This document shows positions 42,001 to 48,000 of a stretch of 64,000 nucleotides of DNA, piece after piece. Origin of the DNA: Planctomycetota bacterium (GTDB taxonomy: Bacteria > Planctomycetota > JAJSAM01 > JAJVHW01); the NCBI GenBank assembly GCA_965248445.1, contig CBDFJG010000004.1:1184001-1248000 (forward strand), given 5' to 3'. Position numbers: made by a program. Position 1 is the first letter of the stretch; every line of letters starts with the position of its first letter.

Positions 42001-45000
42001 CTAGCGAGAAGCCTGAGTTTCGATTTCTTCGCACGTGGCCGACCTCCGCGCGCACCATCTGCGGTGCAAAAGGACCCGTCGGGCACTGTGTCTTTAGGCG
42101 GCATCTGCCGTCGGTATAGGCCGCGCGGCCTGTTCTGCACCGCTCCGCCCCTCGCTCAGCCTGCACAGCCGCCGGCGCCCGGAGCCGCTACGCCGGAGTG
42201 TCGCGAATCGCGACAGCGCGCGCGGCGACTAAGTCCGTCTCCTGGGAGTTCATGATGACGGGCATCCTGAACTTCCAAGTGCTCCAGAGTTCCGCGGCTT
42301 CGATCAGCTCCGTCATGAAGTGCGCGACGTTCGCTCTCGTCGCGGGACGGCCGGAGAAGATGCCCGTAGTCGGGGATTCCACGATGTCGTAGGGAGAGAC
42401 GTCAGCGTCGCCCAACGAGTCTGGTCGGACACTGCACCACTCGATGTGCCGGTTCTCGGTCCCGACGCTCCGATACAGGTACTCAGCCGCCGTTTCATTG
42501 TCCCGGTGCGGAGGCACGGTGTAGCGCAGGAGCGTAAGGAGTCCCCGCTCGAACCAACTTCGCTTCTCGCCGAGACCGGGGTTCTTGACCCCGACCGTGT
42601 TCATGAGAATGAACTTGGTGGGTCTTGGCGCATCGTTCACTTCGATGGCGTCGCACAGACGTCGCGTTGCCTCTGTGCACAGTTGCCGCGGAGCTCCGAA
42701 TATCCCCTTGAAGCTCACGACGTGTCCCAGACACGAGACAACGGCATCGCACTCGCTCACTTGCTCCGCCATCTCCTCGTCGGTCAAGTCGAGCACACTT
42801 GCCACCGTGACCGTGATGTTCGGGCTCTCCAAGACCTCGGCGGGGAGCCTGTCTCTGGACCTGACAACCACGCGAACTCTGTAGTTCTTGCGCAGCAGTT
42901 GCTCGACCAGGGATCGCCCTGTCTTGCCCGTCGCTCCAACTACCAGCGTGATCATCCGTCGTGTCCTCCTTGCGCCCGTCCTCAACATTGCAGAGGGTAC
43001 GGTCAGCACGAATCGGCCGCTCCCAGGCGAAGGAGTGCCGCAAGACACGCGACCCACGCCTCGCCAACCGTCGCGCACGGGTGTCGCGGATCTGCATGGG
43101 CGCGGCGACTGGATTCGAACCGAGCGAAGCGAGGACGCCGAGGTGCGCGACCGAGCAGTCACGCGCTGGTGACTCTCGAACGCCGCGCACCGAAGGACAA
43201 CCGGCGACCATCTGGCGCCCGGGGGCTCGATGCCCCCGGGCCCGGAGGGTCGCGAGGCTCGAATCCAGTCGCCCCGGTCGTGGCCACCTGGTGGGGCACG
43301 CCCGTTCCCCCTCGGGCTGCAATGGTCGGGGCGACTGGATTCGAACCAGCGACCTCATCCACCCCAAGCTCAGGCTAGGCTTGCGGCCCGCTGCGAATGT
43401 AAGTCGTTGCGTCGCATTCGGATGCGACACGTTGCACCAGATTGTACTCCGCACGGGTAGTGCTACCCATCTCGGGTCAACCGCTCCGGTCGTCCGAACT
43501 GCACGAGCGCTCGTTCCCGTCGGAGGACCTGCCGAGGGTCGGACTCTGCAACGCGACCCCGCTTCACACACGGTGTCCCGCGCGATCCGGGCGCGGTGCG
43601 CTCACGATTGCGCACGGGCAATGCGCCCCGGGCTCTCGCTACTCTCCCTCTGGCCGCGCAGACCGCGCGGCGGGAGCGTGGGGGAGGAGTGATGCGGATA
43701 GGGGCTCCCCCCTTCGCTCAGGTTGAGCGCCCGATCGGGTGACTAACATCGCACTTACAAGGAGGTGTGATGACCGGTGCCATGATCCCCTTTGCGCGCG
43801 ACGACTCGCTGCCGGGCACACTCGCCGAGTTTGTCGTGAGGTTCTCCGACGAAGATCGGTGTGCAGCCCTGCTGCGCCGGTGGAAGTACGGCGAGGGCGG
43901 CTTCCGCTGTCCAGCGTGCGGCGGCGAGGAGGCGTGGTTCCTGCCGTCACGCCGGCTCGACGAGTGTTGTGCCTGCCACAAGCAGGTTTCGCTCACCGCC
44001 GGCACCGTCATGCACGGGTCTCGCAAGCCGCTACGGCTGTGGTTCCTGGCCATGTATCTGTTCGTGTCGAGCAAGCGAGGCATCTCCGCACTCGAGCTGC
44101 AGCGCGAGCTTGGACTGGCCAAGTACCAGACCGCTTGGACATGGCTGCACAAGTTGCGAAACGCCATCGCGATGCGATCCACCGCGCCGCTGCGCGGACA
44201 CCTCGAGATCGACGAGACCTGGGAAGGCGGACTGCGACATGGCCGGCCGGGGCGTCCCAAGGTCGGCGACCGCAGCGCGCTGGTCATGGGAGCCGTCGAG
44301 ATCTCACCGCGTCACGCCCTCATCGGTCGCATCCGTCTCGAATCCATCGCCGATGGTTCGGCTGACACGGTCAAGGCGTTCCTCGAGCAGCACGTCGCCG
44401 CACGCTCAGTGCTGTTCACCGACGACTGGCGTAGCTATCGAAAGCCGGCTGACGACTTGGAGCACGACCATCGACCGACCAACGTGTCGAAGTCCGACGA
44501 CGAGGCACACGTTGTGCTACCTGCGATCCACCGCGTCTTCTCGCTGCTCCATCGCGTGCTCTTGGGCACGTTCCAGGGCGGCGTGCGACGCAAGTACCTC
44601 CCCAGCTACCTGGCGGAGTTCGAGTTCCGGTTCAACCGACGCACATCGAAGCGACGTGGACTGCTGTTCCAACGACTACTCGCCTGCGCCGTGCGGCGAT
44701 GCCCTCCCTTCCACTGGGAGATCGTTGGGCGAACCGATGCGCGCACGCCACTCGCCGCCGCAGCCTGACCTGAGTGAAGAGGGGATCCCCTATGCGGATT
44801 TCTCGGAAGAGTTCCTTCGTCGCGACGGCGGCGACCGTCCTCCTGTGCGCGAGCGTGGCCGGCGGCGTCGGCACAATCGTCACGACGTGCGCGGTCATCG
44901 ACGCGGGCACCGCCACCAACCAGGGCATCGTCACGATCGACGAGTGCGCCCCGCCGGCCACGCCCCCGCCAAAGCCCTCGCTGGGCGTCCTGACGACGCA

Positions 45001-48000
45001 GGGCGCGATCGATGGCCCGCTCCCGGCCAAACCGAGCACCGGTGACGGTTCGCTCGGCGCGGTGTCTCTCGCCAGCTCGCAGACGCTCCCGGGCGGCACG
45101 TACAACTACACCGACTTAGACATCACCGGCGGCGCGACGATCTCCTACTCCGGACCGGTGACGATCCTCGCCACCGGCTCGGTGAACGTCGCGGGCATCA
45201 TCGACATGAACGTCGCGGGCGACCTCGCCATCGTCGCCGGCGACGAGATCAAGATCCTCAGCATGGACGGAGCGCCGGTCACCGGCGTGTTCCACTTCTC
45301 GGTCGGAAACGTGCGGCTCGAGGCGGACCGCGTCGAGATCGGGGTGGAACTGGTCGCACCCGTCACAAGTGCCACTCCGAACGTCGCGGAGGTCCGCAGC
45401 AACCAAGGAGACACGGTCATCCGGTCGCACGGTTCCGACCCGGGCAACCACGCCATCGACATTGCGGACTCGTCCATCAACGTCGCGGACGGCGGCAACA
45501 TCCTGATGCAGTCCTCGACGCGCATCGACGTGTTCACGTCGCTGATCGACACGAGCTTCGGCTCGGTGACGGTCCAGGCGTTCGGTGACGACGTGCGGTA
45601 CTCCGGCTCCGAGAGCTACTCCCGGGACGGGGACACGATCGTCGAGTCCTCGAACGACGTCACGCTGCAGAACGCGACGATCGTCGAGGCCATCCACGGG
45701 GAACTGCGGATCGAGGCTTTCGACGGGGACGTCACCTTCGACGAGGCGGCGGCGTCGGCCGACGACGGCGTGGCGGTCGGGAACGGGAGCGGAACGGGCA
45801 GCATCATCGTCGCCGCCGCGGAGTTCGTGGACCTCAACAACGACTCGTTCATCACATCGGACGGCACGGGCGGTGTCCGCGTGACCGCCCACGGCGGCGA
45901 TGTCGTGCTCGAACGGAGCGGCTCCACGGGACAGTCGTACATCGAGTGCGTGCGGAGGGGCGACGTGCTGGTCGAGGCGTCCGAGAACGTGCGCCTCTAC
46001 GGATCCAGCTACTTGCGGACGCCACGGGACATCAGGGCGGTCGCCTTCGGCGGCGAGGTGCTGCTCCAGGGCCAGCCGTTCATCGACGGGAGCGAGGTCC
46101 TGGTGGGTGCGTCGAACGCGATCGTCGCCCAACAGGACGGTCCGCCGCCCTTGATTCGGGGAGCAGGGGTCGATCTCGTCGCGGGCTCCGGCGGGATCAA
46201 CCTGCAGGCGAGCGTCATGGCGGACGACGGCGACTTCGACCTCAGCATGATCTGCGACGGCGACATCTTCCTGGAGGGATCGGCGGAGGGCAGCGGCGGA
46301 GCCAGTGTCTCGCTGACTTCGGTGGACGGCGACATCCTGGTCATCGACGCGATGGTGACGACGCTCAGCGGAGTGGGGGCACGGTCCGGCAGCGTCCGGC
46401 TCAGGAGCTTCGGCGGCAGCGGGGCACTGATCGACGCGACCAACGCCACCATCACATCCGGCGACGCGTCGTTCAGCAGCGGCGACGTGTCGCTGCTGAT
46501 CCACGGAGGCGGGACGATCCAGTCGTTCGTGCTGCCCAAGACTGTCAAGGTCAAGATCAACGAGAACAGGCCGGAGAAGTCGAAGGTCAACGCAGCCGGT
46601 TTCTTCGACACGGGCCCGGCTCTCGCTTCGCTCGCAGGACCTGCCACCGTCAAGGTCGGCGACCTCGAGTACACCGCGAACCTCGAGCCCAGCAAGAACG
46701 GCAAGAGCTTTCTGTTCAAGTCGGGCGGTGCGCGGCTGCAGATCAAGCCGAACCGCTCCGGCAGTTCCCGCGCGAAGTTCAAGCTGACGATCACCGACGA
46801 CCTCATGGGCGACGTCCCCGACGAGGGCAACATCACGCTCGAGTTCGAGACGGCATCGGCCAACGGGATGGGCACCGTGGAACTCGAGCGCGGCAAGTAC
46901 AAGCTCGGCAAGCGCCGCGGCCTGCTCAGCGAACCGAACGTCTTCCCGTTCAAGGTGAAGCAAGTGCACAAGGGCGACGGCAAGGACGTGCTGTCGATCC
47001 TGGCGGGCCTCGCCACCGGGGGCGGCACGCCCGACAACGCACCGGACGTGACGATCTCGCTCGGCGGCGTCTTCCAGGCGACCGTCCCGGGTGACGAGTT
47101 CACGCGGAAGGGCGACGTCTATATCGCGAAGCACCCGCCGTCGGCACCCGGCGTCTCGAAGCTGCAGATCAACTTCCTGAGGGAGCAGGTCAGTCTGAAG
47201 GCCAAGGGACTGACGCTCGGAGCGCGGCCGGACGAGGGCCCGTACAACATCGAAGTCACCGTGGACAACGAGACCCGCGGCGTCGACATCCGCATGTCGC
47301 CCTCGAACGCCCGCACCATCAAGTACTGACCGCGGGCGTCGAGGCCCTCGATCCGCACACGGGCAATCCGCCCGGGGCTCCCGCTGTCCTCCCACCGTGC
47401 CTCGCGGTCGGGCGCTGTGATGACCTTCGGTCGGAGGTGGAAGCCGACATCTGCGATCGTCACTCCGCTGTCGCGCTCGCCGAGAGCATGAGGTCGAGGC
47501 CTGGGCGAAGGAGTGCCTCGGTGACGTGCGTTCCGCGGAGACAGCGGGTAGCCGCCGTACGAGTTGTCAATGGTCGGGGCGACTGGATTCGAACCAGCGA
47601 CCTCATCCACCCCAAGGATGCGCGCTATCCAGGCTGCGCCACGCCCCGACCGAGATCGCGCGGATCGACCCGACGATGTGCCGGGAGCCGGGTCCGCGCC
47701 CCCGTCCGCGGCGTCTCCGCCGAGTGATCGGCGGGCCCGGACAGGGATCTCCCGGGCGCGCGAAGGGGACGGGGAGAATAGCGCCGGTCCGACCCCCGCA
47801 AGCCAGAAAGAGCGCCGCCCGGCGGAGTGCCGGACCCCCCCGCCCCCGGGGGACTTCGAGGCCCCCGCCAAGACTGCTATCTTCTGCGGCTTCACGCGCG
47901 CGCGTGGGGTGAGCGACGGTGCCGCGCAGCGGCAGTCGAAGCCTCCGGTGGAGGGTTCGACAGGAGCGAACGCGAGGCAGCGGGCCACGGGCCGATGCCG

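Follow-up and report, generated by a model that had tools for sequence, protein, structure and literature searches.

The window, a 64,000-nucleotide stretch of a Planctomycetota genome, contained on its plus strand at 44792..47329 a gene that, by ORF reading, encoded an exported protein of 845 aa with a signal peptide, an acidic passenger and a basic tail of two repeats. A putative Sec-type signal peptide of ~26 aa (44792..44869, plus strand; cleavage site approximate) was read off its basic start, hydrophobic stretch and small residues. It was followed on the same strand by an acidic, Lys-poor passenger (44870..46522; 0.6% Lys) and by the tail, namely the last ~268 aa (46523-47326) ending in ...RTIKY*. 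The first tail repeat (46523..46915, plus strand) was a beta-sandwich in which G26, D29, G31 and S82 were near-invariant, and the second (46916..47326, plus strand) closed with a short strand and the terminal Tyr. Searches of the full product against Pfam and NCBIfam gave no match, the sole Pfam hit (SlpA_N, E 0.16) being below the cut-off.

An IS1595-family element (43700..44791, plus strand) was inserted at the start codon of this gene. The element was identified by Pfam DDE_Tnp_IS1595 and Zn_ribbon_IS1595, by its ends and by an 8-bp target duplication, which included the ATG and was located at 43692 and 44792. Upstream of the element remained the ribosome-binding site that originally belonged to the gene. 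Moreover, the window opened with the 3' part of a second gene (1..1818, plus strand) whose start preceded the window. Its passenger belonged to the same family, and it ended in one divergent repeat that lacked the Tyr.

Structure of the tail domain

An iterated HMM search over all ORFs of the genome led to nine loci with this tail, one of them split, as the earlier note had reported. No RNA holder was found for the split paralogue. The tail consisted of two homologous repeats of ~135 residues each (hhalign probability 95, E 3.9e-8) and its predicted model was a rigid all-beta pair (pLDDT 96.8, pTM 0.90) with no membrane helix; both the two-repeat beta-sandwich and the pLDDT value given previously were reproduced.

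The tail was not covered by any Pfam or NCBIfam family, be it in the query, in 30 members of the alignment or in sets of 68 and 70 full-length proteins, which extended to NCBIfam the earlier result for Pfam. PDB sequences gave nothing clear (best E 0.14). Foldseek and VIA, run with the pair and with the single repeat, returned background beta-sandwich matches only; the best VIA Z was 6.2 rather than the 7.1 noted before, still at background level. The T9SS signal domain was absent from these match lists, although such absence does not exclude one. We found no account of the tail domain in a literature search whose coverage excluded most subscription journals and all supplements, and the domain was not described in the catalogues searched.

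Distribution of the repeat family

Of the 17 genomes of the order, 13 had the full two-repeat form and 16 had the repeat in one form or another, G001 being the genome with no match; the previous figure of 15/17 fell between these counts. The idea of an order-bound domain did not hold, since full-length copies occurred beyond the order in G070, G094, G199 and G274, and single or doubled relatives of the repeat in 37/401 Planctomycetota genomes. Up to 28 repeat matches per genome were seen in this class. The library contained 631 representatives at E<=0.001, as compared with the 419 counted earlier. Among the word-index protein matches listed (10, 9 and 4), relatives from Sedimentisphaerales and Ca. 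Jettenia were named. Since the word-index searches were crowded out, spread beyond Planctomycetota was suggested solely by the Atlas neighbours of the tail, namely unnamed proteins of 153-172 aa from Planctomycetota and Binatota (0.91-0.93), whose low recognition made them a lead only. No relative of the tail was found on viral contigs, and the plasmid collection had no match to the single-repeat query.

The repeat stood at the extreme C-terminus in 87/95 repeat-bearing ORFs. N-terminal copies were found in 10 proteins from 4 genomes, one of them on a GH18 chitinase, and one copy was internal (protein P0161). Nine proteins of G106 had a doubled repeat that lacked the Tyr, and a row of three genes encoded small exported proteins, each with one repeat and a PrcB_C-like domain. 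By hhalign (96-98), the off-position copies and the tail repeats were homologous. In a quick tree, the N-terminal copies formed a branch of their own and may work differently, and both G106 repeats fell on a single branch (SH-aLRT 93), suggesting a separate second duplication. By sequence comparison, the tail domain belongs as one branch to a larger repeat family that has no name. An abundant neutral planctomycete tail of ~120 aa was also considered as a relative; it was not detectably related (hhalign under 0.4).

The terminal tyrosine

Among the best 150 library representatives, the last residue was Tyr in 145, Trp in 1 and Phe in 0, in agreement with the 151/159 inspected previously; only 1.6% of the 3557 genes in the genome ended in Tyr. 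However, contrary to the earlier claim, the residue was neither invariant nor always terminal: 2/9 loci of the genome ended in Tyr-Lys and one full-length relative in Arg-Gly. A final Tyr was found in 1/27 single C-terminal copies. The last strand followed a hydrophobic-x-hydrophobic pattern, which was Y/F-x-L in repeat 1, L-K-L in one N-terminal copy and L-x-Y in repeat 2. Because the repeat also occurred as a single copy, as a Tyr-less pair, within a protein and at the N-terminus, the terminal Tyr is best described as a mark of the two-repeat subfamily. It stands where the predicted fold has a conserved hydrophobic residue, and its role as a terminal signal is putative. On the other hand, the near-exclusive use of Tyr over Phe at the two-repeat end was stricter than usual for core packing, which argued against a purely structural residue. 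Covariation over 173 sequences was too noisy for placing the Tyr. The possibility that Arg83 of a Ser-Ser-Arg motif holds the terminal carboxylate was not supported, since position 83 was also Leu, His, Phe and others in Tyr-ending proteins.

Passengers and charge

In five of the nine genes the passenger was a paralogue of the window passenger, in three it was an FG-GAP_2 propeller and in the last one it was of another type. The unrelated passengers reported earlier were therefore of only three types in this genome, whereas the diversity was confirmed family-wide, with 116 passengers in 24 clusters. The window passenger fell into the largest cluster (31/116), some members of which had weak matches to DUF7305, DUF2345 or DUF4097. 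Passengers were surface-type domains on proteins that mostly had a Sec-type signal peptide, with choice_anch_Q and CSLREA over the cut-off. In one passenger family it varied with the lineage whether the proteins had this tail domain, a tail unrelated to it or no tail.

The tail was rich in Lys and Arg and more basic than its own passenger in 113/113 proteins (median pI 9.75 vs 4.25), and Lys made up 6.6% of the tail as against 1.1% of the passenger. Neutral or net acidic tails did exist, among them most G106 copies and one locus of this genome. The signals of the T9SS are basic beta-sandwiches too, so charge could not separate an anchor from a cargo signal.

Neighbouring genes and candidate secretion machinery

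No conserved neighbour other than passengers was found among 725 ORFs at 89 loci, where clustering gave promiscuous families only. In this genome, which was 92% complete, PorV had no match (the control rang in Bacteroides), SprA had none (its control was also silent) and PorP had none (its controls rang below the cut-off only). A search for Slam in the genome was likewise empty, with a silent control. The genome had a GspD/GspE-like locus resembling type II secretion. GspD-like secretins were present in 17/17 genomes of the order, including G001; since that genome had no repeat match, the secretins did not track the domain. We also found one exported stand-alone C25 peptidase, as well as two PEP-CTERM proteins and two exosortases encoded by genes separate from those of the tail domain.

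Possible function of the tail domain

It was most likely that the tail holds or directs exported proteins at the cell surface. Anchoring fitted better than sorting by a terminal signal, both roles being ones that we infer. Of the sorting or anchoring tag proposed in the earlier note, modular localisation was retained, given the surface-type passengers and the swapping of tails, and a lineage-specific tag read through the terminal Tyr was not supported.

We put the probability that the tail is a retained, non-covalent envelope-binding module at about 0.5. The proteins would be exported by Sec and then probably pass through the general type II secretion system, after which the folded repeat would bind an anionic envelope partner such as lipopolysaccharide, a surface glycan or an acidic surface protein. 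Enzymes as well as adhesin-like domains would thereby stay attached to the cell, and doubling of the repeat might provide higher avidity. The role of the terminal Tyr would be structural, within the last strand; it would have become fixed in the subfamily without being the signal itself. In favour of such a module we counted the basic tails, the N-terminal and internal copies with their homology to the tail repeats, the suggested second duplication in G106, the hydrophobic pattern common to the last strands, the lack of a conserved neighbour and the precedent of the Lactobacillus S-layer anchors, which are basic and mostly tandem and, depending on the genus, stand at the N- or the C-terminus (PMC10221546). 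Counted against it were the near-exclusive Tyr, the C-terminal position in 87/95, the neutral or acidic tails and the separate N-terminal branch.

It was possible, with lower probability, that the repeat is instead a folded cargo signal similar to those of the T9SS, recognised by a machine for secretion or attachment in the outer membrane, which would be a new Planctomycetota system or type II. The edge that this machine recognises in the subfamily would then be the Tyr-bearing last strand. Cleavage of the tail is conceivable as well, with the stand-alone C25 protease as one candidate. The frequencies of C-terminal copies (87/95) and of terminal Tyr (145/150) pointed to such a signal, as did passenger kinds that bear known sorting signals elsewhere (choice_anch_Q, CSLREA), the lineage-specific alternative tails on one passenger family and the presence of both the GspD/GspE-like locus and the exported C25 peptidase. 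The analogy was with T9SS signals, which are short beta-sandwiches at the C-terminus that PorV binds and PorU cleaves (PMC11969387). However, the N-terminal and internal copies, the free endings outside the subfamily (1 Tyr in 27 single copies), the Tyr-Lys endings, the failure to find PorV in the genome (92% complete) with a control that rang in Bacteroides, secretins that did not track the domain (17/17 genomes, G001 included) and the absence of a conserved neighbour argued against it. Still more tentatively, the whole repeat family may be the cargo signal of a new outer-membrane secretion or attachment system, a T9SS counterpart with unrelated parts, in several Planctomycetota classes including the anammox bacteria and perhaps in Binatota, with the two-repeat subfamily read through its terminal Tyr strand.

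Two other readings were improbable. The repeat might be a self-assembling or lattice-docking unit that polymerises or fits into a coat, either S-layer-like or filamentous, and thereby displays the passengers. Archaellins, FlaF and an archaeal pilin were indeed among the weak top fold matches (Z 5-6; TM 0.49 at best, with rmsd 7.2), and the row of small one-repeat proteins with PrcB_C-like domains agreed with such a unit; yet the fold scores were those of the beta-sandwich background, no protein made of many repeats only was seen among the repeat-bearing proteins examined, and a uniformly basic surface would suit self-association poorly. We gave equally little weight to a substrate-binding or stabilising accessory with no cell attachment, for instance an intramolecular chaperone or a module that binds carbohydrate or mineral. 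Beta-sandwich accessory modules can sit at either end of secreted enzymes, and one copy was indeed on a GH18 chitinase, but the passengers shared no substrate over their 24 clusters, and among solved binding modules the model matched none clearly.

The exported proteins of Planctomycetota include many large enzymes and adhesin-like proteins, and for most of them we found no literature account of display free of a T9SS. The repeat family provides a sequence marker of likely surface proteins and a bait for the receptor or machine. If the tail is a transferable non-covalent anchor, it could be used for surface display.

Comparison with known systems

The BAM beta-signal is similar in being a last beta-strand with an aromatic end residue. 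According to bioRxiv 10.1101/2020.04.09.034678, this signal in bacteria almost always has a final Phe or Trp and tolerates no extension; with 0 Phe and 1 Trp in 150, Tyr-Lys endings and a model that is a soluble sandwich rather than a barrel, the tail was rejected as a BAM substrate. A sortase-type CTERM signal (short motif, membrane helix and basic tail) was likewise rejected, since the model was all beta-strand and there was no NCBIfam hit. Cargo of Slam (type XI) is associated with a Slam gene and has a C-terminal 8-stranded barrel; the fold matches of the tail were sandwiches at background level.

Dockerins and PEP-CTERM are also terminal tags on exported Planctomycetota proteins, but the tail had neither a sequence match to them nor a membrane helix. 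A cohesin-dockerin 'planctosome' has been proposed for the phylum (PMC6461901). In the order studied here, dockerin was found in 3/17 genomes and was absent from this one.

Another similar domain is the T9SS C-terminal domain of Bacteroidota (type A: TIGR04183 / PF18962). Both are C-terminal beta-sandwiches on unrelated Sec-exported surface proteins, with choice-of-anchor and beta-helix passengers in common. The tail had no match to the type A or B models. The T9SS domain is always C-terminal, as the tail was in the Tyr subfamily, but homologous repeats occurred N-terminally and internally. The tail repeat was ~135 aa and often doubled, as against the 40-82 aa stated in PMC11969387. A further mark of the T9SS is that its cargo is cleaved and linked to a surface glycan.

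SLAP (PF03217), a non-covalent cell-wall anchor of Lactobacillus S-layer proteins, is basic, often tandem and found at either protein end (PMC10221546). It differs in being a ~60-aa, teichoic-acid-binding domain of monoderms, whereas the repeat was a 135-aa sandwich from a diderm phylum with no sequence match to it; in 30 members, SLAP, SLH and dockerin gave no Pfam hit at E<=0.1. Anchors of this kind are basic, tandem, flexible in position and kept on the mature protein; the first three of these traits were seen in the repeat.

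The flagged gene and its copies in the genome

The flagged gene (window 44792-47329, +) encoded 845 amino acids. Its Sec-type N-terminus was followed by an acidic passenger and then by a tail domain, the last ~268 residues, which ended in RTIKY. Searches of the genome's complete set of stop-to-stop ORFs (49,767) by phmmer and by an iterated HMM converged on nine tail-bearing loci, the number given in the earlier note. The invariant terminal tyrosine reported there held for seven of them (counting the downstream half of a split gene), whereas the other two ended in Tyr-Lys. Additional divergent Tyr-ending candidates were found at C3:1577688 (E 5e-7 to 5e-9) and, weakly, at C1:455888 (E about 0.01-0.09; C1 to C4 denote the contigs).

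An IS1595-family element (window 43692-44799) had inserted into the flagged gene at its start codon; the ATG was part of the 8-bp target duplication. Since the native ribosome-binding site and promoter now lay ~1.1 kb further upstream, expression of the gene may be lost or come from the end of the element. The split paralogue (L007:7735-10792, G000:C4:929731-932791) had a frameshift in repeat 2, at a stretch of eight G, and could represent a recent pseudogene or else a phase-variable switch; no indel was found at this G run in same-sample contigs (four runs of one sample, possibly the source of the genome). In a further paralogue (L002, G000:C4:1874911-1878830), the passenger was broken by a 477-aa ORF that recurred nearby and, in our reading, looked like a transposase. 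Thus, insertions or frameshifts had hit three of the five paralogues of the window passenger.

Domain relics were seen at L003:8661-8816, a 52-aa piece of repeat 1 immediately 3' of a full gene, and at L003:16246-17085, a broken gene with a single repeat. Elsewhere in the window, a tRNA-Pro gene (47571-47648, -) lay 240 bases 3' of the flagged gene, and three ORF sets of equal lengths recurred every 1673 bases at 14287-19060, suggesting a triplicated segment.

The two-repeat family and its passengers

A 30-sequence profile of the two-repeat tail matched 631 library representatives (E<=0.001); stricter cut-offs of 1e-10 and 1e-30 left 357 and 255. Among the best 150 of the 631, 145 ended in Tyr, one in Trp and four otherwise; in three of these four the match stopped before the end of the profile, and the fourth ended in Arg-Gly. 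As background, Tyr was the last residue for 1.6% of the 3557 genes in this genome, and for 2.5% among the 932 with a signal-like start, by our own gene calls and a heuristic.

The passengers had been described as unrelated. This was true across the family, where 116 passengers of testable length gave 24 single-linkage clusters, but the nine genes of this genome carried only three types: the window passenger in five paralogues, an FG-GAP_2 propeller in three genes and a different passenger in one. Heuristically, 98 of the 116 had a signal-peptide-like start and one a lipobox-like motif. Searches of chosen proteins with Pfam (68 proteins) and NCBIfam (70) named FG-GAP_2, DUF7948/SBBP, lactonase-type propellers, LamG, beta-helix, BNR, fn3, M15 peptidase, HAF repeats, CSLREA and choice-of-anchor Q in the passengers, and no family in the tail region. 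According to bioRxiv 10.1101/2023.03.06.531300, the term choice-of-anchor is applied to domains in surface proteins that an LPXTG, PEP-CTERM or T9SS signal holds in place. The pI of the tail exceeded that of the passenger in 113 of 113 proteins (medians 9.75 vs 4.25), and Lys content was 6.6% vs 1.1%.

Within the order, 13 of the 17 genomes had the full two-repeat form; of the other phylum genomes in a 301-genome sample, four had it. The record of one relative was labelled Planctomycetia bacterium, and two representatives were named Planctomycetota. The papers listed by our literature search included none on the tail domain. For another planctomycete lineage, PMC6461901 proposed a cohesin-dockerin 'planctosome'. 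The tail repeat is a real, uncatalogued domain family with a probable function of known kind.

Structure of the tail

The AlphaFold2 model of the two-repeat tail was all-beta (pLDDT 96.8, pTM 0.90), and repeat 1 was homologous to repeat 2 (hhalign 95, E 3.9e-8). Against solved folds, this model reached a Foldseek TM of at most 0.22 among the matches listed and a VIA Z of 6.2. The single-repeat model (pLDDT 90.3) had no Foldseek match at E<=0.001; its best TM was 0.49 (rmsd 7.2), to an archaellin, and VIA gave Z 6.2 with rmsd 3.3 over 95 residues. Because such scores are background for Ig-like sandwiches, we left the fold unassigned; a new fold was not established. The final short strand of repeat 2, L-x-Y, matched Y/F-x-L in repeat 1, and the terminal Tyr is therefore predicted to sit at a hydrophobic position of the fold. 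The most conserved polar residues of the repeat were D29 (0.96) and S82 (0.98). A Tyr end did not depend on Arg83, and noise in the covariation analysis precluded its interpretation.

A wider repeat family

Iteration with a single repeat recovered homologues in other arrangements, which changed our reading of the tail domain. A 40-row single-repeat model matched 37 of 401 phylum genomes. In the class, 16 of 17 genomes had matches, as many as 28 in one genome. Relatives were named from Sedimentisphaerales and Ca. Jettenia. Among 95 distinct repeat-bearing ORFs from fetched loci, a set biased to two-repeat matches, 60 had two C-terminal repeats (Tyr end in 47; nine of the remaining 13 came from one genome, G106), 27 had one C-terminal repeat (Tyr end in one), and eight were classed as N-terminal or internal, two of them spuriously (the split gene and a diverged pair).

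The N-terminal single repeat, a caveat of the earlier note, proved more widespread: 10 proteins in four genomes carried the repeat immediately after the signal peptide, ahead of PrcB_C-like, Kelch or GH18 domains. They included three tandem ~305-aa genes (L009:8952-11721) with a signal peptide, one repeat and a PrcB_C-like domain, which had counterparts in genomes G007 and G013. In protein P0161 the repeat pair was internal. Profile comparison supported the homology of four subfamilies (N-terminal, single, PKD-type and G106) to the tail repeats, with best scores of 96-98 (below 0.4 for an unrelated tail). A rapid, long-branched tree built from 79 repeats without bootstrapping grouped both G106 repeats (SH-aLRT 93), and likewise the seven N-terminal copies (91). 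This grouping suggests, without proving, that the repeat doubled more than once.

Other tails on exported proteins

SBBP propellers matched 89 of 251 phylum genomes. Among the best 30 loci, the end was this repeat in three, an unrelated neutral ~120-aa tail in 12 and some other tail in six; seven had no tail and two ran off the locus. Therefore, one passenger can take differing lineage-specific tails or none. The neutral domain (L208, L210, L212, L214, L215, L218, L219, L221, L222, L223, L225 and L226) belonged to other Planctomycetota, was unrelated to the repeat by profile comparison, and was not found in the genome under study.

This genome had other Lys-rich basic C-terminal tails, which by eye were PPC-like and helical, on acidic exported proteins (C3:895635, C4:193003, C3:1144794, C4:169760, C3:824347 and C4:1619997), which are possibly parallel anchors. 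A crude filter found such a tail on an acidic body in 21 of 345 signal-bearing proteins vs 11 of 485 others. Exported proteins at C4:734579, C3:344985, C3:929161 and C4:1511376 ended in similar C-terminal strands with an aromatic last residue (FQFNF, PYQF, PYEY). Five exported ~1700-aa proteins (C2:857081, C3:458772, C4:105447, C4:111363 and C4:1966304) resembled a polymorphic protein family; four shared near-identical starts pairwise with differing ends, and one pair was adjacent.

Secretion machinery and possible function

The tail-domain genes were scattered, and clustering of 725 ORFs from 89 loci gave no recurring neighbour beyond promiscuous families. The 92%-complete genome had no match to PorV (the control was positive in Bacteroides), to PorP, to SprA or Slam (whose controls were likewise silent), or to dockerin, which was present in three of the 17 genomes of the order. 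It encoded one Omp85 protein, two exosortases with two PEP-CTERM proteins, and a stand-alone exported 511-aa C25 (gingipain-like) peptidase (L079:1438-2970), with no T9SS marker found. One locus held GspD-like and GspE-like genes slightly below curated cut-offs, plus pseudopilin-like genes. GspD-like secretins occurred in 17 of 17 genomes and did not discriminate, since G001, a genome without a repeat match, had them too.

We ranked first, at a probability of roughly one half, that the tail is a retained, non-covalent envelope anchor: the protein would be exported past the inner membrane, and the tail would be retained and bind some ligand. The strong C-terminal bias of the repeat and its strict Tyr ending would also suit a folded signal by which a type II or unknown machine recognises its cargo, a less probable reading that we ranked second and that has a parallel in T9SS, as described in PMC11969387. 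A BAM signal was unlikely, because in bacteria the last residue of such signals is nearly always Phe or Trp, with no extension beyond it, according to bioRxiv 10.1101/2020.04.09.034678. That the tail serves as a self-assembly unit appeared improbable, and a role as a substrate-binding module equally so.

On the preferred reading, a retained envelope anchor, the tail domain would be like the anchors of Lactobacillus S-layers, which PMC10221546 describes as basic, usually tandem and placed at either end. The points of likeness were flexible position, doubling in tandem, basic charge and the absence of any linked machine.
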